Below, piece by piece: positions 9,558-24,312 of a DNA stretch of 64,000 nt. Position numbers and translations under genes: made by a program. This DNA comes from an uncultured Gemmatimonadales bacterium (GTDB taxonomy: Bacteria; Gemmatimonadota; Gemmatimonadetes; Gemmatimonadales; GWC2-71-9). The DNA lies in NCBI GenBank assembly GCA_963730185.1, contig CAVSQW010000015.1:160001-224000 (forward strand), given 5' to 3'. Every line of letters starts with the position of its first letter. Positions within the stretch are counted from its first letter, which is position 1. Below the pieces are notes generated by a model, which saw nothing but the letters and a program-made list of their open reading frames with translations, was not told the DNA's origin and searched no databases.

Positions 9558-10493
9558 TCAGTAGGCCATCCCTCGCCGCCGGGTGACCAGGACGTCGCAG
9601 GGCGCGCGCTCCACCACCGCTTCCGCGACACTGCCGAGGAACAGCCGCCCCAACCGGGACTTGCCGGACGAGCCGACGGCCAGGAGGTCGGCCTTCTTCG
9701 CCCGGGCCTGCTCGAGCAGGACGGAGCGAGGATCCCCGGTCTTGAGGATCAATCCTTCGATCCCGGCGGGCTCCAGGGCTCGCCGCACCGCCCGGGCCCG
9801 CTCCCGGACGGCTTCGCCGGCCCGCTGGCGACGAGCCCGTGCCCCACTGGGCACCAGGGCCGCGGGCACCCCCGCGAGCGGATCGTCGAACGCTGCGACC
9901 GCGGCCAGTCGGGCGGTGGCCGGAGTGATGCGCCGCATCATCTGGGCGGCGCGCTTGGCTTCGGCGGAGAGGTCGTAGCCGACCAAGGCGCGTCGGTAGG
10001 GCGCGGTGGGCGGCGGCCCGACCACCAGAACGGGTTGTCGACCGCGGCGGACCATTCGGCGGGCGGTCGTGCCGATCAGGATCTCTTTCATCCGCGACTG
10101 GCCTCGGCGTCCCACCACCACGAGGTCGGCCTCGAGGATCTTGGCCAGCCGGAGCAGCTCCTCCGCGGGGTCGCCGCGGACCAGGCGGGTGGTCACGGTC
10201 ACGTCCGTTCGGCCCCGCTCCTCCAGCGTCCCGGCCAGTTTGGCCGCCGTGGTCTCGAGCTCGGTCTCGGCCGCGCCGCGGACCACCGAATCGGTAGCCG
10301 GGTCGATCCTCCGCGGGAGCACGGAGGCCACCACGACCGAGGCCCGCGAGGTCAGCGGCAGGGTCGCCACCCGGCGGACCGCCCGATCGCCGTCGAGCGA
10401 CAGATCGGTGCCGACCAGGACCCGCCCGACGCCGATCCCGCGGGTGGTTCGGGATCGGCGGCTCACCGGTCGACTCTTTCCTCGGGTCGTCAT
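9558..10493 (-). CDS. Universal stress protein, tandem USP domains (USP1)
   Basis: ATG 10493 with GGAGG RBS; GRRGQSRMKEILIGT and GSSGKSRLGRLFLGSVAE. Confidence 0.9.
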   Translation of the reverse strand: MTTRGKSRPVSRRSRTTRGIGVGRVLVGTDLSLDGDRAVRRVATLPLTSRASVVVASVLPRRIDPATDSVVRGAAETELETTAAKLAGTLEERGRTDVTVTTRLVRGDPAEELLRLAKILEADLVVVGRRGQSRMKEILIGTTARRMVRRGRQPVLVVGPPPTAPYRRALVGYDLSAEAKRAAQMMRRITPATARLAAVAAFDDPLAGVPAALVPSGARARRQRAGEAVRERARAVRRALEPAGIEGLILKTGDPRSVLLEQARAKKADLLAVGSSGKSRLGRLFLGSVAEAVVERAPCDVLVTRRRGMAY

Positions 10494-10532: not shown

Positions 10533-10577
10533 AAGGTCGGGGCCGTGGCTTAACGTGGTCGTGGAACGGCCCTGAGC
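10533..10577 (-). promoter_or_regulatory. Repeat-array promoter 1 (USP1)
   Basis: Minus strand GCTCA-N6-TTCCA-N7-GTTAA-N11-GACCTT. Confidence 0.5.
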
Positions 10578-10596
10578 GTTTCTTCCGAAGGGAACC

Positions 10597-10641
10597 CTTC
10601 CCGACGGCTTCAGGTCCGCTTCATCGACGCGAGCGCTGATT
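10597..10641 (+). promoter_or_regulatory. Repeat-array promoter 2 (esterase-PRTase-hydrolase operon)
   Basis: CTTCC-N6-CTTCA-N6-CTTCA-N12-CTGATT; the -10 match is weak. Confidence 0.6.
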
Positions 10642-10666
10642 CGAGAGGTCGGTTCCGGAGGCGGCG

Positions 10667-12595
10667 ATGGGGACCGCTCGTAGGGCATTGATGGTGGAGG
10701 CCCAGCTGGCCGGACGGGGGATTGCCGATCCGGCGGTGCTCGCGGCCATGAACGCCGTGTCGCGCGAGTCCTATCTTCCGAACCAGCTGATCGATGAGGC
10801 CTGGGACGATGCGGCGATCGTCGTGGCGCCGGGTCAGGTGTTGCCGCAACCTTGGCTTCTGGCCCGGGCGCTCGAGGCCCTGGAGCCCAGCCCCGCCGAC
10901 CGGGTGCTGGAGCTCGACGCCGGCCTGGACTACTCGACCGCGGTGCTCCGCCGGCTGGTGCGGGAGGTCGTGACGGTCCCGCCGACCGACGGCGACCCCC
11001 CGTTCGACGCGATCCTGGTCCACGACCGGACCGAGGCGGCGGCGGTGCGACTCCTGCCTTGGCTCCGCGAGGGTGGGCGTCTGGTGGCCGTGGTCCCGGA
11101 AGGTCCCGGGGAGCGCCGGTTGGTGCGGTTCCGGCGCCGACGCGGCGGAACCGAGTACGACCGTAACCCGCTCGAGCGGGCCCGCTTCGTGCTGCTCCCC
11201 TGGGGCGCCGAGACCCGCTCCGACCTGGGCCGCTACCTGCCCGGGCTGGCGCCGTCCGATCCGCGGGCCGCGGCCGGGCTGGTCCGGGAGGTAGCCGAAC
11301 CGTTCGGGTCGGTCGAGGACTTCGATCCCGGCCCGATTCTGGAGCGACTGGGCGACGCCCGTCTGGTGCTCATCGGGGAGGCGAGTCACGGGACCTCGGA
11401 GTTCTACCGGCTCCGCGCCCGCCTAACGCGGGCACTGATCGAGCGCCGGCGCTTCGCCTTCGTCGCCGCGGAAGCGGACTGGCCCGACGCGACCCAAGTG
11501 GATCGGTACGTCCGGCACCGGCCGCCCGACCCGGCCGACGAGCCGCCCTTCATCCGGTTTCCGACCTGGATGTGGCGCAACCGCGAGGTGGCCGGGTTCG
11601 TCGGGTGGCTCCACGAGTGGAACGCGGGGCGGGGCAGCGGGGGCGGCCGGGTCGGCTTCCACGGCCTCGATCTCTATAGCCTTCGAACCTCGCTCCGCCT
11701 GGTCCTGGACTATCTCGACCGGGTCGACCCGGCTGCGGCCCGCCTGGCGCGGGAACGCTACGGGTGCCTCCGCCCGTGGGAGCTCTCGCCGGCCGCCTAC
11801 GGCCGCTACGCGCTCTCGGCCGGTTACCGCTCCTGCGAGGAGCCGGTGGTCCGGCAGCTGACCGAGCTGCTTCGGCAACGGCTGGCCTATGGCGGCCGGG
11901 ACGGTGAGCAGTTCTTCGACGCCGAGCAGAATGCCCGGCTGGTAGCCGACGCCGAGCGGTACTATCGGGCGATGTACTACGGCTCGGTCGCCTCGTGGAA
12001 TCTCCGTGATCGGCACATGTTCGCCACCCTGGACCGGCTGCTGACGGCCTACGGGCCGACCTCCCGCGGCGTGGTCTGGGCCCACAACTCGCACCTGGGT
12101 GACGCCTCGGCCACCGAGCTGGGCGGGCGGGGCGAGCTCAACATGGGTCAGCTCTGCCGGGCGGCGTTCGGGCCGAGCGCCTATCTGATCGGATTCGGGA
12201 CCGACCGCGGGACGGTGGCAGCGGCCCAGGACTGGGACGGGCCGCTCGAGATCAAGACGGTCCGCCCGGCCCATCCGGAGAGCTACGAAGCTCTTTGTCG
12301 CGCGGCCGAACGACCGGCCTTCGCGCTTCACCTTCGGGACCCGCGGCGGCCCGAGGTGCGGGACGAGCTGCTGCCGATTCGCCTGGAACGGGCGATCGGC
12401 GTCATCTATCGCCCCGAGACGGAGCGTCAGAGCCACTACTTCGCGGCCTCGCTTCCGCGCCAGTTCGACGAGTACCTCTGGGTGAGTGAAACGAGCGCCG
12501 TGGCCCCGCTGGCCGTTACCGAGCGATTCCCCCCGGTTTCACGGGACCTTCAGGGCCCGATGGCCACGTTGCGGGGAGGGGAGGAGAGCCGCTGA
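10667..12595 (+). CDS. PCMT-like domain fused to erythromycin esterase-family domain
   Basis: N-terminal QLAGRGIADPAVLAAM; C-terminal IGEASHGTSEFY, EADWPDA, VVWAHNSH, ERAIGVIY. Confidence 0.88.
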   Translation: MGTARRALMVEAQLAGRGIADPAVLAAMNAVSRESYLPNQLIDEAWDDAAIVVAPGQVLPQPWLLARALEALEPSPADRVLELDAGLDYSTAVLRRLVREVVTVPPTDGDPPFDAILVHDRTEAAAVRLLPWLREGGRLVAVVPEGPGERRLVRFRRRRGGTEYDRNPLERARFVLLPWGAETRSDLGRYLPGLAPSDPRAAAGLVREVAEPFGSVEDFDPGPILERLGDARLVLIGEASHGTSEFYRLRARLTRALIERRRFAFVAAEADWPDATQVDRYVRHRPPDPADEPPFIRFPTWMWRNREVAGFVGWLHEWNAGRGSGGGRVGFHGLDLYSLRTSLRLVLDYLDRVDPAAARLARERYGCLRPWELSPAAYGRYALSAGYRSCEEPVVRQLTELLRQRLAYGGRDGEQFFDAEQNARLVADAERYYRAMYYGSVASWNLRDRHMFATLDRLLTAYGPTSRGVVWAHNSHLGDASATELGGRGELNMGQLCRAAFGPSAYLIGFGTDRGTVAAAQDWDGPLEIKTVRPAHPESYEALCRAAERPAFALHLRDPRRPEVRDELLPIRLERAIGVIYRPETERQSHYFAASLPRQFDEYLWVSETSAVAPLAVTERFPPVSRDLQGPMATLRGGEESR

Positions 12596-13260
12596 TGGAA
12601 TTCCAGGTGTTTCGGGATCGGCACGACGCCGGCCGGCAGTTGGCGGTCGCGCTGGAGCGATTCCGGGCGGACCGACCGGTGGTGCTCGGGTTGCCGCGCG
12701 GTGGCGTGCCGGTGGCCGCGGAGGTCGCGCGCGCTCTGGACGCTCCGCTCGACGTTCTGGTCGTGCGGAAAATCGGCGTGCCGTGGCAGCCGGAGTTTGC
12801 GATCGGCGCGATGGGCGAGGGGGTGGTCAAGCTCGATCAGGCGCTCATCCGCCGGATGGGTATCTCGTTCGACGACGTCCACGAGGTGGTGGATCGCGAG
12901 AGCCGGGAGCTCGAGCGGCGGATCCGGGTGTACCGGGCGGTCCGCGCCCCGATCGAGGTAACGGACCGGCCCGTCATCGTGGTCGACGACGGGCTCGCCA
13001 CCGGGTTCACCGCCCGGGCCGCCATCGAGGTGCTCCGGCGACACCGGCCCTCGCGAGTCGTCTTCGCCGCTCCGGTCTGCGCCCCGGATTCCGCCCGGCG
13101 ATTGGCCGGCGTGGTCGACGAGGTGGTGTGTCTTCGGCAGCCCGGCGATTTCCGGGCGGTGGGACGCTGGTATCGGGACTTCTCACCGACGGCCGAGGCC
13201 GAAGTGGTGGCCTTGCTCGAGGAGGCGTCGGCCGCCACGGGCGGTCGTGCTCTCCGGTAG
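12595..13260 (+). CDS. Phosphoribosyltransferase-family protein
   Basis: FRDRHDAGRQLA, LPRGGVPVA, PRPP-binding VIVVDDGLATG. Confidence 0.9.
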   Translation: MEFQVFRDRHDAGRQLAVALERFRADRPVVLGLPRGGVPVAAEVARALDAPLDVLVVRKIGVPWQPEFAIGAMGEGVVKLDQALIRRMGISFDDVHEVVDRESRELERRIRVYRAVRAPIEVTDRPVIVVDDGLATGFTARAAIEVLRRHRPSRVVFAAPVCAPDSARRLAGVVDEVVCLRQPGDFRAVGRWYRDFSPTAEAEVVALLEEASAATGGRALR

Positions 13261-13281
13261 GACGCCTGGAAGGAGGCCTCC

Positions 13282-13953
13282 GTGGCCAAATTGACGACGA
13301 CGCTGGTGGAGCGGGACGTTGGGGTAGTGGCCGGCACCGTGCTGTTGGCCGGCACCCTGACCATCCCGCCGGAGGCCGGCGGGATGGTGTTCTTCGCCCA
13401 TGGCTCGGGCAGCAGCCGGTCGAGCCCCCGGAACCGCTTCGTGGCCCGCCGTCTCAACGAGGCCGGTCTGGCCACCCTGCTTTTCGACTTGCTCACCGAG
13501 CGCGAGGCCGCGGAACGGACGAATGTGTTCGACGTCGACCTGCTCGGCCGGCGGCTGGTCGAGGCCATCGATTGGCATCGGGGTCAGGCCGGGCTCGAAG
13601 GCCTGCCGGTCGGCGTCTTTGGCGCGAGTACCGGTGCCGCCGCGGCGCTGATCGCCGCCGCTCGGCTCCCCGGAACGGTTCGGGCCGTGGTCTCGCGAGG
13701 CGGCCGGCCCGACCTGGCGGGTGACGCGCTGGGGCGGGTGCTGGCACCCACGCTGCTCCTCGTCGGCGGTGAGGACGACCTGGTGCTCGAGCTCAATCAG
13801 GCCGCCATCGCCCGCCTCGCGAGTCCCAAGCGGCTGGTGGTCATTCCCGGGGCGGGGCACCTGTTCGAGGAGCCCGGCAAGCTCGAAGCCGTATCCCGGC
13901 TCGCGGCCGAGTGGTTCGTTCGCTACCTGACCGTCAAACGGCTGGCGGAGTGA
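13282..13953 (+). CDS. Dienelactone hydrolase-like alpha/beta hydrolase
   Basis: FAHGSGSSRSSPRN, GASTG, VSRGGRPDLA, GAGHLFEEPG. Confidence 0.88.
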   Translation: MAKLTTTLVERDVGVVAGTVLLAGTLTIPPEAGGMVFFAHGSGSSRSSPRNRFVARRLNEAGLATLLFDLLTEREAAERTNVFDVDLLGRRLVEAIDWHRGQAGLEGLPVGVFGASTGAAAALIAAARLPGTVRAVVSRGGRPDLAGDALGRVLAPTLLLVGGEDDLVLELNQAAIARLASPKRLVVIPGAGHLFEEPGKLEAVSRLAAEWFVRYLTVKRLAE

Positions 13954-13982
13954 CGATCGGCGGCCCCGCCGTCGGCTTCGAG

Positions 13983-14420
13983 TCAGGTCGGAATCTGGGT
14001 CCCCTGGCGGGCCAGGAGTCGCCCGATGGCCTGGGCCTCGTCGACCAAGAGCTCCATGACGTCGTCGAGGCTCACGATTCCCGCGACGTGACCACCCTTA
14101 GCGGTGACGACGAGTCGGCGGGTGCCGAGCCGGGCCATCCGGTTCAACGCCTGCTCGATCGGGGTGTCCTCGTCGACGGTCTGGGCCGGGGTCGACATGA
14201 CCGTCGCGATGGCGGTCTCCTCGGGGTCGAGTCCGGCGGCCAGGCAGCGGGTCACCAGGTCGCGGTCGGTCACGATCCCAACCGGCTCCTGGAAGGATTC
14301 GCCGCCGAGAACCACCAGGGTGCCCACGTCCTCCTCGTTCATGCGCCGAGCGACCGTCCGGACGGTCTCGGTGGCGGTCGCCGTCGCGACGACCCGGCTG
14401 GCGATGCGTCCGACCGACAT
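13983..14420 (-). CDS. CBS-domain pair protein
   Basis: GIVTDRDLV and GIVSLDD motifs; GGAGGG RBS. Confidence 0.9.
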   Translation of the reverse strand: MSVGRIASRVVATATATETVRTVARRMNEEDVGTLVVLGGESFQEPVGIVTDRDLVTRCLAAGLDPEETAIATVMSTPAQTVDEDTPIEQALNRMARLGTRRLVVTAKGGHVAGIVSLDDVMELLVDEAQAIGRLLARQGTQIPT

Positions 14421-14468
14421 GGTTCCCTCCTAGGCTGACGGGCTGGGGCGGTACATCACCCGGGCTCA

Positions 14469-14524
14469 ACGGTACCGCGTAGCGGGTGAGGGCGGCCTGA
14501 AGCCTGAGTGAGAAGGTGATGAGC
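14469..14524 (-). promoter_or_regulatory. Repeat-array promoter 3 (CBS)
   Basis: Minus strand GCTCA-N6-TCTCA-N6-CTTCA-N6-CCTCA-N12-TACCGT. Confidence 0.68.
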
Positions 14525-14533
14525 GCCCGGGAA

Positions 14534-14578
14534 CTTCCCGCTGCGTTAATGCTGTCGTCAGGATCGGCGTCCCAACTT
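14534..14578 (+). promoter_or_regulatory. Repeat-array promoter 4 (glgA)
   Basis: CTTCC-N6-GTTAA-N6-CGTCA-N12-CAACTT. Confidence 0.55.
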
Positions 14579-14587
14579 GGGGGAGCC

Positions 14588-16144
14588 ATGACGACGACCG
14601 CCCCGATCTCCGCTCCCGCCGCACTCCCCCGCCGCACCGTCGCCGAACCGTTGCGCCGCCGATCGCGGACGGCCTTCCACTCCCGCGCCCAGGTGGTACA
14701 TCTCTCGGCCGAGTATGGTGCCCTGGCCCGGACCGGCGGCCTGGCTGAGGCGGTCGAAGGCCTGGCGCGAGCCCAAGCCCGGACCGGATCTCCCCGGGCG
14801 GCGGTGATCCTCCCCCTTTACCCCGCGCTCCGGCGCTCCGGGCGGTTTGTCCCATTGGCCTCCGACGGCCGCGCCGATCCGGGGGCGGTTCCGGTGTGGC
14901 GGGATGTGGCTCAGGCGGAGGCGGGACAACCCGACGTCCTGGCGCTGGACCTCCCTGGCTTCGACCGCCCGGGAATCTACGGCGAGGACGGCGTCGACTA
15001 TCCGGACAATCCCGCCCGTTTCTCGACCTTCGTGCGGGCGGCGCTCGAGGTCATGCCGCGACTGACGCCGGCCATCCGGGTGCTGCACGTCCACGACTGG
15101 CACGCGGGCCTGGCCCCAGCCCTGCTCCGTACCGAGTGGGCCGGCCGGCGATTCTACGACGCCATCGCGACGGTCCTGACCGTGCACAACGGGGCCTACC
15201 AGGGGCGCTTTCCCCGAGGAGTGTGTGACGGGCTAGGCCTTCCGTCCGCCGTCCTCGACGCCTTGGTGCCTGACCGTGAGGGGCGCCTCGCCTGGCTGGA
15301 CCTCGCCCTTCGGTTTGCCGACCTGGTGACCACGGTGAGCCCGAACCACGCCGAGGAGCTCCGGACGCCGCTGGGCGGCTTCGGCCTCGACGATCGCTAT
15401 CGGGCCTTGGGCGACCGGCTGGTCGGGATTCGAAACGGGATCGACGCCATCCACTGGGATCCCGCGACGGATGGGGCCTTGCCGGCCTTCTTCCAGGCCG
15501 GCTCCCGCGCCGGACGGGCCGCCAGTCGGACGGCGGTCGACCGGGCCCTCGGCTTTCCCTCGGACGGGGCACCGCTGATCGGGCTCGTCGGTCGACTGGT
15601 CGAGCAGAAAGGCATCGACCTGGTCGCCGATGGTCGGCTGGTCGAGTGGTTTCCGGAGGCGCGGTTCGTCGTGATGGGCGAGGGGAGGCCGGAGTACCGG
15701 GACCGGCTCCGCGGGTTGGCGGCGCGGTTTCCCGACCGGGTCCGGGCGCCGCTGGCCTTCGACGAGGGGTTCGAGCGCCGGCTCATGGCGGGCGCGGACC
15801 TCGTGCTGGTGCCCTCCCTGTACGAACCCTGCGGGCTGGCGCAGCTCCACGCCCAGCGGTACGGGGCCGTGCCGGTGGTACGGCGGGTCGGCGGCCTGGC
15901 GGACGCGGTGGTGGACGGGGTGACGGGATTCGTCTTTGACGAGTATTCCGTGCCCGCCCTCGCGGAGGCCTTGGGCCGGGCGCTCGCCGCCCGGCGGAAC
16001 CCGATCGGGTGGCCCGTGTTGGTGGAGCGGGTCATGCGGCTGAATGTCGGGTGGGACGACGCGGTGCCTCGGTTCCGCGACGTCTATCGGGCCGCCTGCA
16101 CCCGTCACGCCGCCTGGGAGGTGCAGGCGCATCGGAACCCGTGA
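14588..16144 (+). CDS. glgA: Glycogen/starch synthase (GT5)
   Basis: RTGGL, HVHDWH, TVHNGAYQG, PSLYEPCGLAQL, VGGLADAV; ATG 14588. Confidence 0.88.
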   Translation: MTTTAPISAPAALPRRTVAEPLRRRSRTAFHSRAQVVHLSAEYGALARTGGLAEAVEGLARAQARTGSPRAAVILPLYPALRRSGRFVPLASDGRADPGAVPVWRDVAQAEAGQPDVLALDLPGFDRPGIYGEDGVDYPDNPARFSTFVRAALEVMPRLTPAIRVLHVHDWHAGLAPALLRTEWAGRRFYDAIATVLTVHNGAYQGRFPRGVCDGLGLPSAVLDALVPDREGRLAWLDLALRFADLVTTVSPNHAEELRTPLGGFGLDDRYRALGDRLVGIRNGIDAIHWDPATDGALPAFFQAGSRAGRAASRTAVDRALGFPSDGAPLIGLVGRLVEQKGIDLVADGRLVEWFPEARFVVMGEGRPEYRDRLRGLAARFPDRVRAPLAFDEGFERRLMAGADLVLVPSLYEPCGLAQLHAQRYGAVPVVRRVGGLADAVVDGVTGFVFDEYSVPALAEALGRALAARRNPIGWPVLVERVMRLNVGWDDAVPRFRDVYRAACTRHAAWEVQAHRNP

Positions 16145-16156
16145 CCGGGGCGGACG

Positions 16157-16335
16157 CAAAGAAGAGGCGGAGGGTCTCGCCTCTCTCGAGACCCTCCGCC
16201 TTTCCCTCGTTCGGCGTCCGGATGGAGAGTCCGGTGGAGTCCCGCTGCTCTAGGCTTGGCGCGGGTCGCCGACGGGAGCGGCCGACGACGGCCGACCGCT
16301 CCAGGCCGACGGCGTCCTTCACTTCCACCCTCGGC
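16157..16335 (-). ncRNA. Candidate small RNA A (~180 nt)
   Basis: Own repeat-array promoter (TATCGT), several hairpins, terminator, no credible ORF; ends estimated. Confidence 0.45.
16165..16201. terminator. Bidirectional intrinsic terminator
   Basis: Perfect 15-bp stem AGGCGGAGGGTCTCG/CGAGACCCTCCGCCT with pyrimidine tails on both strands. Confidence 0.8.
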
Positions 16336-16341
16336 ACTCCA

Positions 16342-16386
16342 ACGATAGTCCGGAGCCGCTGAAGGGGCGGTGAGCTGACCGTGAAG
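16342..16386 (-). promoter_or_regulatory. Repeat-array promoter 5 (sRNA A)
   Basis: Minus strand CTTCA-N6-GCTCA-N6-CTTCA-N12-TATCGT. Confidence 0.68.
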
Positions 16387-16406
16387 CTTCGATGTCAGCG
16401 CCCGGG

Positions 16407-16556
16407 CAAACGACGGCCCCGGCGGCTCGGCTACGCCCCCGGGGCCTGGGAGTGGGTCGGGCAAGTGAACCATTCGGGTCACTTTCTTGAGACGCCGGCC
16501 ACCCGCGCCGACAGTCCCGTGGGCACTACCTTCGCCCTTCCTGCCGCCCGACCTTC
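16407..16556 (-). ncRNA. Candidate small RNA B (~150 nt)
   Basis: Own repeat-array promoter (TATCTT), multibranch fold closed by GGTCGGGC/GCCCGACC, 3' hairpin 16415-16446; ends estimated. Confidence 0.4.
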
Positions 16557-16562
16557 ACCATC

Positions 16563-16606
16563 AAGATAGCCTCGGCGCGTTAGGAAATGGCGAAGCTCGC
16601 TTGACG
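16563..16606 (-). promoter_or_regulatory. Repeat-array promoter 6 (sRNA B)
   Basis: Minus strand CGTCA-N6-CTTCG-N6-CCTAA-N11-TATCTT. Confidence 0.55.
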
Positions 16607-16638
16607 TCCCGTTCATCGTCGGGGAGGGACGCCGGCTT

Positions 16639-16683
16639 CTTCGTCGCCGCTTCAGGTCTTCTTCAACCGGTCCCGCCCAGATT
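16639..16683 (+). promoter_or_regulatory. Repeat-array promoter 7 (USP2)
   Basis: CTTCG-N6-CTTCA-N6-CTTCA-N12-CAGATT. Confidence 0.7.
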
Positions 16684-16720
16684 GCCGGTATGGGCTTGGT
16701 GGGCCCGGGAGGAGGATCCG

Positions 16721-17626
16721 ATGCTTCGCTCGCTCGTGGTTCCGCTCGATGGCTCGGGCTTCGCCGAGACCGCGATTCCCGTCGCCCGGGCGCTGGCTCG
16801 TGCGGCCGGGGCGTCGATTCGCTTGGTGATGGCGCACCAGCCGAGTCCGGTCCTGGTCGGGGCCTCCGCCCCGGACGACCGGGAGGTGCAGGCCCAGGAA
16901 CGCACCTACCTCGCCGCCCAGGCGGCCGACCTCCGGCAGCTGGCGTCAGGTCCGGGCTCGCAGGTGCTGCTCGAGGGGCATCCCGGTCCCGCCCTGGTCG
17001 AGTGGCTCACGGCGGAGCAGCCGGACCTCGTGGTCATGGCCACCCACGGGCGCGGCCCCGCCAGCCGGTTCTGGCTCGGCAGCGTGGCCGACTACCTGGT
17101 TCGCCATGCCCGCGCGCCGCTCCTGCTGCTCCGGCCCCCGGCGGCCGAGGGGCCGCAGGCGGCCCCGACCTTCCGGGCTGGCCTGGTCGCGCTCGATCTG
17201 TCCAACCGGGCGGAGGCCGTCCTGGAGACGGTGGCGCCGCTGGCCCTCGCGACCCAGGCGCACCTGACCCTGCTCTACGTACTCGAACCCGGTCTGGGCA
17301 TGGCCGGCACGCCGGCGCCCTACCCCGTCTCGCTGCCGCACGACTTGCTGGAGCACACCCGCGAGGAGGCCCAGCGCTACCTCGATGGCGTGGCCGACCG
17401 GCTTCGGACCCGCGGACTCCAGGTCGCCACGAAAGTCCTCGTTGGCTTCGGCGTCGCCGGCGCCTTGTTGGCACAGTTGGGTCGCGACGAATACGACTTC
17501 GTGGCCGCCTCCACCCATGGTGCCGGCGGCTTCCGGCGGATGCTGATCGGCAGCGTGGCCGACAAACTGGTGCGGGGCGCCACCAAGCCCGTGCTGTTGG
17601 TGCGGTCGGATCGGCATCTGCCCTGA
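16721..17626 (+). CDS. Universal stress protein, tandem domains (USP2)
   Basis: GGAGGAGG RBS; VVPLDGSGFAE, ATHGRG...LGSVAD, STHGAGG...IGSVAD. Confidence 0.92.
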   Translation: MLRSLVVPLDGSGFAETAIPVARALARAAGASIRLVMAHQPSPVLVGASAPDDREVQAQERTYLAAQAADLRQLASGPGSQVLLEGHPGPALVEWLTAEQPDLVVMATHGRGPASRFWLGSVADYLVRHARAPLLLLRPPAAEGPQAAPTFRAGLVALDLSNRAEAVLETVAPLALATQAHLTLLYVLEPGLGMAGTPAPYPVSLPHDLLEHTREEAQRYLDGVADRLRTRGLQVATKVLVGFGVAGALLAQLGRDEYDFVAASTHGAGGFRRMLIGSVADKLVRGATKPVLLVRSDRHLP

Positions 17627-17640
17627 CCACGGCGGGACGG

Positions 17641-17696
17641 CGTCACCGGGCGTTACAGAATCCTTCATGCTGCGTTCAGGCGGGGCGCAGCATGTT
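17641..17696 (+). promoter_or_regulatory. Repeat-array promoter 8 (USP3)
   Basis: CGTCA-N6-GTTAC-N6-CTTCA-N6-GTTCA-N12-CATGTT. Confidence 0.68.
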
Positions 17697-17750
17697 GCCT
17701 CAGTGGGGGCATTCGGCGCCCACGCCGACACCGGACGGGGGAGGCCCGCC

Positions 17751-18662
17751 ATGACCCGGTCGATTCTGCTGCCGCTCGACGGCTCGCGCTTTGCCGAGGC
17801 CGCGATTCCCCTCGCGCTCGAGCTGGCGCGAAAGGCGCGCGCGTCGATCCACCTCATCCACGCCCACGAAGGCGTGCCCGCGGCCCTGGTGCACGGTGAC
17901 CTCGGGCCGGGTGGCGAGTCCGACTTGGGCGAGGAACGGAGCTATCTCGCAGAGACAGCCGCTCGCCTCTCCTCGGGATCGGTGGAGATCAGCTACCAGC
18001 TGGTCGACGGGCCGCCGGTCGAGGCCCTCGACGAGTGGATCGTAGAGCACCGGCCCGCCTTGGTGGTCCTGGCCACCCACGGTCGGGGCTCGCTCGACCC
18101 CCTCTGGCTCGGAAGCGTGGCGGAGCACCTCGCACGGTGCGCGGCTGCTCCCCTGCTCCTGGTGCGGCCCGAAGACGGCGCCCCGCTCCCGTCACCGGTC
18201 CCGAGCATCCGGCGGGTTCTGGCGCCGATCGACTTCGCCGAGGGGCACGAGGCCCTGGTCGATCGGTTGGGTGAGTTCGCCGGTTTCGTCCAGGCCCACG
18301 TGACCCTGCTCCACGTGGTCGCGCCGCCGCGCGGGCTGCCTGAGGCCGCGGCCCCGGCCCCCGGGCGTGGGCTGGTCTGGCAGACGCCGGCGGAGGCGGG
18401 CGCGCAGCGTTGGCTCGATCGGCTGGCCGACCGGCTCCGCGCCCGGGGAGTGGCGGCGGCGGCTCGGGTCGTGGGGGAGCCCGACATCGGCCCGGCGATC
18501 CTCGAATACGCCGACCGGATCGCCGCCGACGTCGTGGCGCTCCACGCGCACGGCTGCGGCGAGTCTCACGACGGAGGCATCGGGCCCGTCGTGGACCACG
18601 TGGTCCGCGGTGCCCGGACTCCGATCCTGATCCTTCCGCCGATCCGTCCCCAGGCGATCTGA
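17751..18662 (+). CDS. Universal stress protein, tandem domains (USP3)
   Basis: GGAGG RBS, ATG 17751; LLPLDGSRFAE, ATHGRG...LGSVAE; paralog of USP2. Confidence 0.9.
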   Translation: MTRSILLPLDGSRFAEAAIPLALELARKARASIHLIHAHEGVPAALVHGDLGPGGESDLGEERSYLAETAARLSSGSVEISYQLVDGPPVEALDEWIVEHRPALVVLATHGRGSLDPLWLGSVAEHLARCAAAPLLLVRPEDGAPLPSPVPSIRRVLAPIDFAEGHEALVDRLGEFAGFVQAHVTLLHVVAPPRGLPEAAAPAPGRGLVWQTPAEAGAQRWLDRLADRLRARGVAAAARVVGEPDIGPAILEYADRIAADVVALHAHGCGESHDGGIGPVVDHVVRGARTPILILPPIRPQAI

Positions 18663-18708
18663 CCAGCCTGTTCTCGTTCGGCCGACCACGGCCCGGTCCG
18701 GCCAGCCA

Positions 18709-18748
18709 ACCGGAGTGCCTCACCTGCGGCTCGAGGCACTCCGGTTTC
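18709..18748 (+). terminator. Terminator hairpin after USP3
   Basis: 13-bp stem ACCGGAGTGCCTC/GAGGCACTCCGGT with short T run. Confidence 0.65.
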
Positions 18749-18781
18749 GATTGACGGGACCAGCGTCGCGTCCCGGGGTCG

Positions 18782-18826
18782 TTTAATCCCCGCTTCACCT
18801 CCGGTTCAGCGGCGCCCCGCCAACTT
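18782..18826 (+). promoter_or_regulatory. Repeat-array promoter 9 (DUF5661 and HPF-CSD)
   Basis: TTTAA-N6-CTTCA-N6-GTTCA-N12-CAACTT. Confidence 0.68.
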
Positions 18827-18866
18827 CGGAGGGTGCGCATCCGGCGCGCGGAGCCAGGAGGGGACC

Positions 18867-19181
18867 ATGTTGGGCAGGTCACGATTCGCCACCGACCAGG
18901 TGCTGAAGGTCGGCACGGTGCTGGGGATCAACTGGGAAGAGGTGGATCTGGAGCAGTTTCGGCGCGGTCTCGAGGTGGAGCTCGAGCACGGCCGGCGGAG
19001 CCCGCTGACCGACCTCACCGGCGACGATCCGGTGTTGACCGGGAAGATCGCCCTCGCGCATCTCCGCGAGGTGCCCGACTACTACTCCCGGCTCGACGCG
19101 ATGGGGCGGGAGGCCGAAGCCGATTGGAAGGGTCGCCGGACGGCGGCCGTTCGGGGGTTCGCGGGCGAGGAGCCGTGCTGA
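18867..19181 (+). CDS. DUF5661-like small protein
   Basis: QFRRGLEVELEHG...TGKIALAHLREVPDYYSRL; AGGAGG RBS. Confidence 0.8.
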   Translation: MLGRSRFATDQVLKVGTVLGINWEEVDLEQFRRGLEVELEHGRRSPLTDLTGDDPVLTGKIALAHLREVPDYYSRLDAMGREAEADWKGRRTAAVRGFAGEEPC

Positions 19182-19275
19182 CCACGCAGGCAGGTGAACC
19201 ATGACGACGAAGCTCGGAGGCGCCGGCCGAGAAGGGGCGGCGCAGGCGCTGTCGGACCTGGGGAGGGAGGGGATC

Positions 19276-19863
19276 GTGACCGAGACCACGAAACGGAGTC
19301 GCACCAGCCGCGAAGCCACCGAGGCGCCGCCGACCTGTCAGATCGTCGCCAAAGCTCTCGAGGTGGATCCCGGCATCCAGGCCCTGATCCGGCGCGAAGC
19401 CCGCAAGCTGAGCCAGTTCTTCGACCGGATTCTCGACGTTCGCGTGGTCGTGAGTACGCCGCACCGGCGCCTCCATCGCGAGACGGTCGACTACGCCGTC
19501 CGGATCTACCTGGCGGTGCCTCGCGACGAGCTGGTGGTGAAGCGCCAGCGTGACGCCGATCTTCGGACCGCCATCCAGGCGGCGTTCCGGGCGGCGGGGC
19601 GGGTGCTCCAGGACTACGCCACCCGGCGGCGCGACCCACCGCCGGTCCAGGCGAAGGCGCCCGTGGGGCGGGTGAGTCGGCTGTTCCCGTACGAAGGCTA
19701 TGGCTTCCTCACCGGCGAAGACGGCACCGATCTCTACTTCCACCGCAACGCGGTCGCCGGCGGCCGGTTCGACGAGATCGCGGTCGGCGAGCGGGTTCGC
19801 TACGCCGCGGCCGAGGGCAATCTGGGGCCGCAGGCGAGCCGGGTGACCCGGGGACGCCGGTGA
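19276..19863 (+). CDS. HPF/RaiA-like domain fused to cold-shock domain
   Basis: KLSQFFDRILDVRVVV...DLRTAIQAAF, then YGFLTGEDGTDLYFHRNAV; GTG 19276 has GGAGGGG RBS (alternative ATG 19201). Confidence 0.85.
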   Translation: MTETTKRSRTSREATEAPPTCQIVAKALEVDPGIQALIRREARKLSQFFDRILDVRVVVSTPHRRLHRETVDYAVRIYLAVPRDELVVKRQRDADLRTAIQAAFRAAGRVLQDYATRRRDPPPVQAKAPVGRVSRLFPYEGYGFLTGEDGTDLYFHRNAVAGGRFDEIAVGERVRYAAAEGNLGPQASRVTRGRR

Positions 19864-19879
19864 ATCCGGGGCGCGGGCC

Positions 19880-22266
19880 TCACCGGCCCGCGCTCAGCCG
19901 CTTTGCCACCCGCGCCACCGAATCGGGGTTGAGCGAGATCGAGTCGATCCCGATCGACACCAACCATTCGGCAAACTCCGGGTCGTCGCTGGGCGCCTGG
20001 CCGCAGATGCCGACTGGGCGCCCCTGGCGGTGCACCCCCTCGACCACCATCCGGATCAGGCGCTTGACGCCGGGGTCGCTCTCCCGGAAGAGCGGGGCCA
20101 GGATCTCGGAGTCCCGGTCCACCCCGAGCGCCAGCTGGGTCAGGTCGTTCGACCCGATCGAGAAGCCGTCGAACAGCTGGGCGAACTCCTCGGCGAGGAT
20201 CACGTTGTTCGGGATTTCGCACATCACCCAGACCTCGAGGCCCCGCTCGCCCCGGATCAACCCGTTCGCGGTCAGCTCGGCCAGCACCCGCTCCGCCTCC
20301 TCGAGGGTGCGGCAGAACGGGATCATCACTTTGACGTTGGTGAGCCCCAGGTCGTCGCGAACCCGGCGGATCGCCGAGCACTCGAGAGCGAAGCCCTCGC
20401 GATAGCGGTGGTCGTAGTAACGCGACGCGCCCCGGAAACCAATCATCGGATTGGACTCGACCGGCTCGAAGTCCACCCCTCCGAGGAGGCCGGCGTATTC
20501 GTTGGTCTTGAAGTCCGAGAACCGGACCAGCACCGGCTTGGGGTAGAAGGCCGCCGCGATCTGGGCCACCCCGCTCGCCAAACGCTCCACGAAGAACTCG
20601 GCCGGGGCACCGGCGCCGGCGGCCGCCTCGCGGATCCGGGCTCTCACCGTGGGGTCGGAAACCCGATCGGGATGGATCAGGGCCATCGGGTGGATCCCGA
20701 TCCAGCTCGAGATCACGAACTCGAGCCGGACCAGCCCGACGCCGTGCGACGGTAGCCGGGCAAAGGCGAAGGCCCGGTCGGGGTTCGCCAGGTTGAGGCA
20801 GAGCGGGACGGGCGGCTCGGGCAGGGTTGCGGGGTCGACGGTCTCCCGGGCGAACGGCACCACGTCCTCGTACACGAAGCCGGCCTCACCCTCGGCACAG
20901 GACACGGTCACGATCTGACCGGGGCGGAGGGTGGTCGTGGCTTCGGCCGCCCCGACGACGCAGGGAATGCCGAGCTCACGCGACACGATGGCGGCATGGC
21001 AGGTCCGACCTCCTTCGTCCGTCACCACCGCGGCGGCTCGCCGGAGTACCGGCTCCCACGACGGATCGGTCATCCGGCTGACCAGGATCTCGCCGTCCTC
21101 GAAGCCGGAGAGGTCCGCGGGGGCTCGGATGATCCGGACCGGTCCCGACGCCACCTGTGCCCCGACGCTCTTGCCTTGGATCAGGACCCGGGCCGGTCCG
21201 GCGCGGTGGTAAATTTCAAGCGGTGCGGCCGGCGTCTTCCCGTGGACGGTTTCGGGGCGGGCCTGCACCAGGTAGAGGAGGCCGTCGAGGCCGTCCTTGG
21301 CCCACTCGATGTCCATCGGCCGTCGATAGTGACGCTCGACCGCCACCGCCCAGCGGGCCAGCGCCAAGATGTCGTCGTCGCCGAGGATCGCGCGGCGGCG
21401 ATCGCTCGCCTCGACCGGCACCTCGACGACGGCCCCGGAGCCGTCCTCATATACGACCTTCACTTTTTTGTCGGCGATCTCGCGGCGAATCAGCGATCGG
21501 TATCCGGCCTCGAGGGTCGGTTTGTGGACCAGGAACTCGTCGGGACGGACCCGCCCCTGGACCACCGATTCGGCGATGCCCCAGGCGCCGGTAACCATCA
21601 CCACGTCGCGGAAGCCGGTCTCGGTATCGAGGGTGAAGATCACGCCGGCCGAGGCCAGATCGCTCCGGACCATCTTCTGGACCCCGACCGAGAGCGCGAC
21701 CTGTCCGTGGCCGAAGCCATGGGTGGCCCGGTAGACGATCGCGCGGTCGGTATAGAGCGACGCCATACAGGCCCGGACGGCGCGATCGAGGGCGGCCTGA
21801 CCCCGGACGTTGAGATAGCTTTCGTGCTGGCCCGCGAAGCTGGCGGTCGGCAGATCTTCGGCGGTAGCGCTCGAGCGGACGGCGACGTCGACGGCCTCCA
21901 CGCCGTATTCGGCCGAGAGCTGGCGGTAGCCGGCGGCGAGTTCTTCGGCCACGACGTCTGGCAGCGGGGCTTCCCGAATCCGGGCCCGAATCGCGCTCGC
22001 CGTCCGGGCCAGGGCGGCCACATCGGTCGGGTCAAGCTCGGCCAGCTGCCGCTCGACCCAGGCGGTGAGTCCGGCCCGCTCGAGGTGAAGCCGGAAGGCG
22101 TCGGCCGTGAGGGCGAATCCGTCCGGCACCCGGACTCCTGCCGAGCCGAGGGCGGTGGCCAGCTCGCCGAGGGAGGCATTCTTCCCCCGACCAGGGGGAG
22201 GTCGGCGAGCCGGAGGTCGCCGAAGGGGATCAGGTGGGCGGTACGGGCGACGGTGGCGGCGGTCAT
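19880..22266 (-). CDS. ppsA: Phosphoenolpyruvate synthase (apparent -1 frameshift near 22184-22188)
   Basis: VGGKNASLGE restored by one extra base; VAVRSSATAED, GGRTCHAAIVSRELG, FSIGSNDLTQ, GICGQAPSD. Confidence 0.92.
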
Positions 22267-22296
22267 GATCCGGCTCCTCGAAACTGTCCCAATCTC

Positions 22297-22340
22297 AAGG
22301 TCCGCCCGGGTGGTGATCTCCCGGTGGAGAAAGGGTGAAG
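22297..22340 (-). promoter_or_regulatory. Repeat-array promoter 10 (ppsA)
   Basis: Minus strand CTTCA-N6-CTCCA-N6-GATCA-N11-GACCTT. Confidence 0.6.
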
Positions 22341-22459: not shown

Positions 22460-22488
22460 TTGACCTGTTGCCTAAGTGTAGGTAGAAT
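22460..22488 (+). promoter_or_regulatory. sigma70 promoter of tRNA-tuf operon
   Basis: TTGACC-N17-TAGAAT. Confidence 0.85.

Positions 22489-23113: not shown

Positions 23114-24312
<1,199 letters not shown>

Follow-up and report, generated by a model that had tools for sequence, protein, structure and literature searches.

In the 64,000-nucleotide stretch of DNA analysed here (the window; G000:C15:160001-224000), from an uncultured Gemmatimonadales bacterium whose genome G000 has 5.27 Mb, 70% GC and a completeness of 82%, a cluster of stress genes carries promoters in which three (C/G)TTCA repeats stand at an 11-bp period, the last of them 12 (sometimes 11) nt before a hexamer of the form xAxxxT, with no conserved −35 word. 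These arrays are confirmed as real promoter elements of fixed geometry. With a probability that we put at about three in four, and judging from sequence, they are the operators of an OmpR-family regulator encoded at C15:147435-148133, 12 kb to the left of the window, which would be activated by an adjoining kinase predicted to sense oxygen through a haem GAF domain. The regulon is genome-wide and respiratory, and so extends beyond the stress cluster of the window.

A first-pass annotation of the window had listed ten such sites, and the coordinates and strands it gave are all correct in the sequence, although the site at 10533 is weak. Its layout of three to four repeats at 11 bp, then 11-12 nt and a hexamer, holds at all ten and at an eleventh site, and nine of the ten hexamers fit xAxxxT, CTGATT at 10641 being the exception. 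Motifs were scored with a purpose-built matrix, and in leave-one-out scoring, with all 10.5 million positions of the genome as background, nine sites have p values of 3e-7 to 4e-6 and the site at 10533 one of 4.5e-4. C is the commonest base at repeat position 1 (20 of 30 repeats). An unbiased count of spaced dyads in the cluster's 17 intergenic regions versus 2,320 others ranks CTTC/TTCA pairs at offsets of 11-12 at the top, every one of the top 15 de novo dyads of the cluster is TTCA-derived, and TTCA-N7-TTCA occurs nine times in the cluster's 3.2 kb versus 22 times in 535 kb, the N6 and N8 forms not at all. Comparison with control DNA, a check proposed at the first pass, finds both period 11 and spacer 12 enriched outside the window: among held-out arrays (outside the window, GC>0.60, at least 15 bits) those of period 11 number 37 in intergenic and 4 in genic DNA, other periods within 7-16 giving 2-11 intergenic ones, and xAxxxT stands at spacer 12 in 20 of the 37, each other spacer from 4 to 25 accounting for 0-4. 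A second matrix, trained only on relatives' regulator promoters with training sites picked by means of the first-pass consensus, finds ten sites in the window at 12.9-28.7 bits, the next best scoring 5.5; these are nine of the sites first listed together with 12526-12570, and the site at 10533 falls outside its top 22.

No Trans_reg_C gene lies within the window, but the cluster has one outside it, at C15:147435-148133, with a 410-residue GAF-HisKA-HATPase kinase before it and a P-type ATPase and cbb3 operon after it; the 85-nt gap between kinase and regulator contains an array. The first pass had postulated one OmpR/PhoB-type activator encoded outside the window and had proposed looking for an OmpR-family pair with the same array upstream. 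Such a pair is thus at hand, and the linkage of the regulator, its own array and the co-occurrence given below argue at the level of sequence for that activator. The relatives sampled were the 80 best matches to one cluster gene, all Gemmatimonadota metagenome-assembled genomes and mostly labelled Gemmatimonadales. In 78 of their 80 kinase loci the regulator follows the kinase, and the other two, which end at a contig edge region and have no regulator match, were left out. By the matrix trained on the first-pass sites an array of at least 13 bits precedes the regulator in 73 of the 78 (0.45% of 1,560 shuffles) and one of at least 16 bits in 64 (0.06% of shuffles). When position was left unconstrained in the scan, the end of the hexamer fell 6-9 nt upstream of the regulator ATG in 75 of the 78, and because this is the spacing of a leaderless transcript we strongly infer that the housekeeping sigma uses the hexamer as its −10 box. 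If the −10 is set at −12 to −7, the proximal pair of repeats runs from about −40 to −25, which bears out their earlier placing over the −35 region; the PhoB box at pstS is given as −41 to −25 (PMC10570014).

The REC domain of the regulator has its phospho-acceptor intact, with D8, D9, D51, T79 and K101 invariant in the relatives, as is the recognition helix SNVVDVHVGN(L/V)RRK in 75 of 75. The best PDB match of its DNA-binding domain is CarR/BqsR, with the helix SNVIEVHVNHLRRKL; no named NCBIfam regulator model is at cut-off, the best being cztR_silR_copR at 231.6 of 279.2, and in an Atlas search with the regulator the top three clusters are Gemmatimonadota. The kinase is soluble and consists of one GAF, a HisKA (PF00512) and a HATPase domain and no other. 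Its GAF finds DosT GAF-A (2vzw, E 1e-39) and DosS as best PDB sequence matches, and the kinase model (pLDDT 80.7) superposes on 2vzw at 1.6 Å with 51% identity. G50, H113 and Y135 of the kinase, invariant in 80 of 80 relatives, align with DosT Gly85, His147 and Tyr169, described respectively as linked to a stable oxy complex, as the proximal haem His and as the distal, ligand-discriminating Tyr (PMC4082495). From sequence and model the kinase is predicted to sense falling oxygen (or NO or CO) through this DosT-type haem GAF, the sole such GAF in the genome. It was found in 61 of the 72 genomes of family f1 and in one of the 31 of family f2; among 8,000 database proteins scored, 2,520 match it at E<=1e-60, the named ones being Gemmatimonadota. 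In a single-contig genome (G125:C1:2147467-2148458) kinase and regulator are matched only in part (residues 5-217 and 104-220) beside one strict motif hit, possibly a decayed system.

Genes across the genome were taken from a purpose-built caller (4,532 genes, their starts occasionally off). Hits of at least 16 bits number 64, of which 11 lie within AT-rich islands and are probably noise, and for 39 of the 4,525 called genes such a site is present at a distance of 300 nt or less. The islands, of 27-39% GC (G000:C7:729000-757000 and C12:423000-434900), are poorly gene-called and a source of false motif hits. The array cluster described at the first pass is real in the window, but it continues with its sites for 15 kb leftward and the regulon reaches across the genome. 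The nine further sites in this left flank precede ccoNO (the cbb3 oxidase), two universal stress proteins (USPs), YgaP/Acg, a release-factor-like protein, a CBS protein, a hydrolase-like gene, Hsp20 and a response regulator. Distant sites precede an NiFe hydrogenase, a cytochrome c-nosZ unit (clade II), a NapA-like molybdoenzyme with multihaem cytochromes and NrfD, a di-haem (cytochrome c) peroxidase, PFOR, V-ATPase, transhydrogenase, OmpW, an acyl-CoA dehydrogenase-ETF unit, a beta-eliminating lyase, OsmC and peroxiredoxin. NCBIfam-type models for Sec-dependent NosZ and for Acg (NF047509) are over cut-off, and five of six USP genes have an array, one of them weakly. Four array-preceded proteins without a Pfam or NCBIfam match (L003:5732-7111, L010:3816-4535, L011:4168-4581 and L005:9088-9681) are candidate low-oxygen proteins.

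The motif also accompanies the regulator among relatives. In family f1 the 61 regulator-bearing genomes contain 250 hits to the strict pattern, its spacer-15 and reversed controls giving 27 and 33, and the 11 genomes without the regulator contain five (controls 4 and 8). In family f2, nearly all of whose genomes yielded neither protein, the strict pattern stands at 26 versus 25. In genus g4 eight regulator-bearing genomes have 0-18 hits (seven of them at least 4) and three without the regulator have none, these without-regulator tallies resting partly on G055, an unpublished genome and one of the three in g4. The 80 kinase loci hold 260 arrays versus 8 at period 10; 43 of the 260 have no assigned gene, and the rest are mostly before the regulator (66), USPs (62 and 31) and Hsp20 (11 of 11). 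As to conservation upstream of orthologues, lack of which the first pass had named as evidence against its claim, it is thus found at the regulator, USPs and Hsp20, and it is partial elsewhere: arrays of at least 16 bits precede 12 of 24 hydrogenases (from the best 25 of 28 matches; antisense control 3, period-10 control 0), 8 of 27 nosZ units (from the best 30 of 60 matches, less the own locus and two with short upstream sequence; controls 0) and 3 of 8 PEP (phosphoenolpyruvate) synthase genes (antisense control 2, period-10 control 0). Among the nosZ loci L102-L130 such an array is found in 7 of 13 without a neighbouring rrf2-family gene versus 1 of 14 with one, so that clade II nosZ may have two alternative modes of control; the nosZ unit of G000 has both array and rrf2-family neighbour. 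The kinase-regulator pair also has nosZ-family genes at a distance of up to about 20 kb in the relatives G106:C2, G043:C1, G113:C94, G100:C121, G064:C32, G058:C10, G132:C13 and G061:C8.

A number of observations weigh against assigning the arrays to this regulator and sensor. The regulator of G000 itself has a 33-nt gap with a ribosome-binding site, and so a short leader and not the leaderless layout. A CusR-like paralogue (C7:324974-325663) also bears an array, which scores 18.6 bits, and metal-efflux-like or CusRS-like genes make up three of the targets (C8:308338, C16:10246 and C7:325736), so that some sites may be shared or the paralogue's own. In two genomes of another family (f6; L185 and L186) a 61-63% relative of the regulator sits among arrays, there CTTAA/CCTCA/TTTCA, with the helix SNVVDVH(V/M)ANLR and a different kinase, which matches that of G000 in the kinase core only and with no GAF match; three other distant regulator relatives have no array within 1.5 kb. 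The f6 case indicates that the box goes with the regulator clade and that the box alone need not imply oxygen control, its wiring being possibly an ancestral arrangement or a sensor swap. Of the 61 regulator-positive f1 genomes six are without any strict hit, the single-contig, regulator-less G140 still has three, and among the best-match loci no array precedes 19 of 27 nosZ units or 12 of 24 hydrogenases. One of the six search words for relatives included the haem His, a mild selection bias. Finally kin are non-independent and incomplete bins may lose the regulator and clustered sites together, and so the nominal co-occurrence p-value is given no weight.

Of the other explanations, the one that survives best keeps the same regulator and operators and supposes that the trigger is NO, CO or the haem redox state, or that more than one kinase is involved. 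DosS and DosT are described as binding O2, CO and NO, with gas versus redox sensing disputed (PMC4082495), regulator relatives in f6 are paired with another kinase type, and OsmC, peroxiredoxin and peroxidase are among the targets. However all 80 kinases have the Gly of DosT type, which is linked to stability of the oxy complex, and genes of high-affinity and anaerobic respiration dominate the targets, and so we regard this as unlikely. It is improbable that another OmpR protein, the CusR-like paralogue at C7:324974, is the main reader and the cluster regulator merely one of its targets. One of the paralogue's two orthologues of at least 70% identity has an array too, of 14.9 bits, and short TTCA/TTAA repeats do serve several OmpR proteins (PmrA, BqsR and PhoP), but of 31 family genomes only 2 were found to have those orthologues while the motif occurs throughout the family, the recognition helix of the paralogue differs (SNVIDVYVMRLRRK), regulator-less genomes retain 41-49% OmpR homologues and not the motif, and six other OmpR genes of G000 have at most 3.9 bits upstream.

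The arrays recall PHO boxes in that the Streptomyces PHO unit is given as 11 nt of GTTCAY in twos and threes (PMC2275107) and in that their position matches that of PhoB's, but nothing above 6.4 bits stands before pstS, pstCAB, phoU, phoB/phoR or neighbours in G000, the C that is commonest here at position 1 is reported as unfavourable for Streptomyces PhoP (PMC2275107), and the targets are not phosphate genes, so a phosphate-starvation regulon is largely refuted and has very little probability left. Equally slight is the chance of an alternative sigma factor or of AT-richer patches arisen by accident, a view that could appeal to the degenerate −10 words and to the island hits but not to three repeats in helical phase whose 6-nt gap, unconserved, falls at the −35 position, to a strict specificity of period and spacer, or to a motif that tracks one regulator. 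A sigma-54 reading was likewise rejected.

With the arrays taken as operators of the regulator beside the haem-GAF kinase, O2 on the haem would hold the kinase off, and deoxy, NO or CO haem would permit autophosphorylation of His196, from which the phosphate would pass to Asp51 of the regulator. The phosphorylated regulator would bind head-to-tail along one DNA face, from about −51 to −25, recruit RNA polymerase in place of a −35 box and boost its own expression through an internal promoter situated behind the kinase gene. A survival arm of five USPs, Hsp20, Acg, CBS proteins, HPF, GlgA and PEP synthase would be switched on, together with a respiratory arm which would take in the cbb3 oxidase, uptake hydrogenase, cytochrome c-nosZ and NapA-like reductase and further the cytochrome c peroxidase, PFOR, transhydrogenase and V-ATPase. 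A bolder version, which we hold only tentatively and with doubt somewhat the stronger, is that of a chimeric, family-wide oxygen switch in which a CusR-like OmpR regulator with a swapped-in DosT-type haem sensor does the work of DosR and FNR through one DNA code, inclusive of clade II nosZ and two hypoxia-induced small RNAs, and in which the code would foretell control of nosZ by oxygen loss versus Rrf2.

Within the window the leftmost site, the weak array with GACCTT at 10533..10577 (−), precedes a tandem-domain USP gene at 9558..10493 (−; Pfam Usp, start chosen from the ribosome-binding site). A simple 11-bp period gives a second reading of this site, GCTCA/TTCCA/CGTTA, 12 nt and GACCTT, and it is graded weak because of its p value and because its 13.4 bits come only with a matrix that contains its own hexamer. 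The array CTTCC/CTTCA/CTTCA, 12 nt and CTGATT at 10597..10641 (+), found in leave-one-out scoring and by the relatives-trained matrix, is followed by a PCMT-like/erythromycin-esterase-family fusion protein (10667..12595, +), this and the further products up to PEP synthase being assigned by domain search unless otherwise stated. The eleventh array, unlisted at the first pass, is ATTCC/TTTCA/CTTCA, 12 nt and CACGTT at 12526..12570 (+; 21.4 bits, and 22.3 bits by the relatives-trained matrix) and lies within the 3' end of the esterase gene, 24 nt upstream of the start of a phosphoribosyltransferase (12595-13260, +), beyond which is an alpha/beta hydrolase (13282-13953, +). A CBS-pair protein (13983..14420, −) has a four-repeat array with TACCGT (14469..14524, −), found, like those named in the rest of this paragraph up to PEP synthase, by both matrices save where another basis is given. 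An array with CAACTT (14534..14578, +) stands 9 nt upstream of the likely ATG (14588) of glgA, whose product, glycogen synthase (14588..16144, +), is over cut-off for TIGR02095. Then come an array with CAGATT (16639..16683, +) for a USP gene (16721..17626, +; gene call, and phmmer with USP queries), a four-repeat array with CATGTT (17641..17696, +) for another (17751..18662, +), an array with CAACTT (18782..18826, +) for an operon of a DUF5661 protein (18867-19181, +) and a ribosome-hibernation (S30AE, HPF)/cold-shock fusion (19201-19863, +), and an array with GACCTT (22297..22340, −) for PEP synthase (19880..22266, −), which has an apparent single-base frameshift near its 5' end. By contrast the tRNA/tuf region has an ordinary promoter without an array, TTGACC-17-TAGAAT at 22460..22488 (+), before the tRNA operon; of the TTGACC housekeeping promoters spoken of at the first pass this one was found and no more. 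PEP synthase (22266-19880, −) and tuf (23115-24312, +) are apparently frameshifted in G-rich runs, and ccoG (L001:959-2367) and the hydrogenase cytochrome b (L007:6366-7119) are likewise split; tuf being an essential gene, errors of assembly are the probable cause.

The first pass had an array heading every transcription unit, and most sites do precede genes, but two on the minus strand, found in leave-one-out scoring, face no open reading frame: 16342..16386 with TATCGT and 16563..16606 with TATCTT. Each is followed by 150-170 nt up to a hairpin, and so they may drive small RNAs of the regulon. Behind 16342 the candidate of about 170 nt (16335-16160, −) has a strong terminator at 16201-16165, without which its fold has a z of −0.8, and behind 16563 the candidate structured RNA (16556-16408, −) has a closed multi-branch fold and a hairpin with z −2.6. 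An Rfam search of both gave nine weak matches, none near gathering score, and a homologue search of 40 relatives only scraps of 23-63 bases, in 14 of the 40.

Gemmatimonadota are abundant and mostly uncultured, and of the soil genes nosZ, for an enzyme that destroys the greenhouse gas N2O, theirs are among the most common. For cultured members, use of N2O is seen as a means of surviving oxic-anoxic shifts (PMC10581226). Surveys of the phylum describe cbb3 and nosZ and, in the parts of them drawn on here, no such regulator (PMC9426454, PMC10581226), and the nos regulators named in the part used of another source are FNR/ANR/DNR types of other bacteria (10.1101/2022.10.27.514152). A literature search (supplements outside its scope) found no published description of this regulator-sensor-array system. 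The mechanism type, OmpR direct repeats, is itself textbook; what is gained is a named set of predicted sensor, regulator and operator by which one family would control its low-oxygen genes (the sensor was found in 61 of 72 genomes), and a rule with which members of the regulon can be recognised by sequence in metagenomes.

In comparison with known systems, the likeness to the mycobacterial dormancy system DosS/DosT-DosR (DevSR), to which the sensor of the tuberculosis bacterium belongs, lies in a soluble kinase whose predicted haem GAF is near-identical to GAF-A (51% to DosT, with His, Tyr and Gly retained), in tandem sites over the −35 region, and in a regulon of USPs, alpha-crystallin Hsp20, Acg nitroreductase, CBS proteins, a cation ATPase and erythromycin-esterase/phosphoribosyltransferase-type genes. 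The kinase core of DosS is of a type that pairs with NarL-type regulators, whereas here there is a single GAF and a HisKA (class I) core, and the partner is an OmpR-type winged helix, none of 13 GerE-domain hits being in the cluster. DosS contains a second GAF domain, GAF-B (PMC4082495), DosR is described as a NarL/UhpA-type regulator (PMC13486717) and Dos operators as palindromic GGGACT half-sites (PMC3177182), and so the system of G000 works like Dos and is not a member of it. Its putative operators are 11-bp direct repeats and its targets include the cbb3 oxidase, hydrogenase and nosZ. A DosT-type haem sensor would here feed an OmpR-type regulator, and a gene set like that of Dos would have been reassembled under a different DNA code. 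A scan with a loose Dos/Dev box (GGGAC..GTCCC) gave 6 strand-hits in 3.2 kb versus 244 in 535 kb, about fourfold and far below the TTCA dyads.

The Burkholderia lxa genes are reported as low-oxygen-induced clustered USPs, alpha-crystallin, nitroreductase and cation ATPase under an Anr/Fnr-like TGA-N6-TCA palindrome (PMC3721108), a similar gene set but with a palindrome absent from the G000 cluster. An FNR/Anr reading was rejected, FNR-type and TGA-N6-TCA boxes being 0 in the cluster, and the search for FNR in this 82%-complete genome gave two CRP-family proteins over cut-off, both without the Cys cluster. The tandem-repeat parallel with OmpR/PhoB regulators drawn at the first pass fits for the PhoP and BqsR boxes and less well for CreB, which was rejected (TTCAC-N6-TTCAC 0 exact in the cluster; CreB model 155.9 of 273). 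With PhoB, Streptomyces PhoP, PmrA/BasR and BqsR/CarR, class II activators, the system has in common the repeat period, the position in place of a −35 and a putative autoregulation, and the words are close, GTTCAY in Streptomyces (PMC2275107) and TTAAG-N6-TTAAG over the −35 for P. aeruginosa BqsR/CarR (PMC4358008). It differs from them in that three repeats are usual and that the sensor is a predicted cytoplasmic haem GAF and not a membrane sensor of metal or phosphate. OmpR-type output is common also to ArcAB and ResDE/SrrAB, where OmpR-family regulators control low-oxygen respiration through kinases that are membrane-bound and not DosT-like, whereas here the kinase is soluble and DosT-like.

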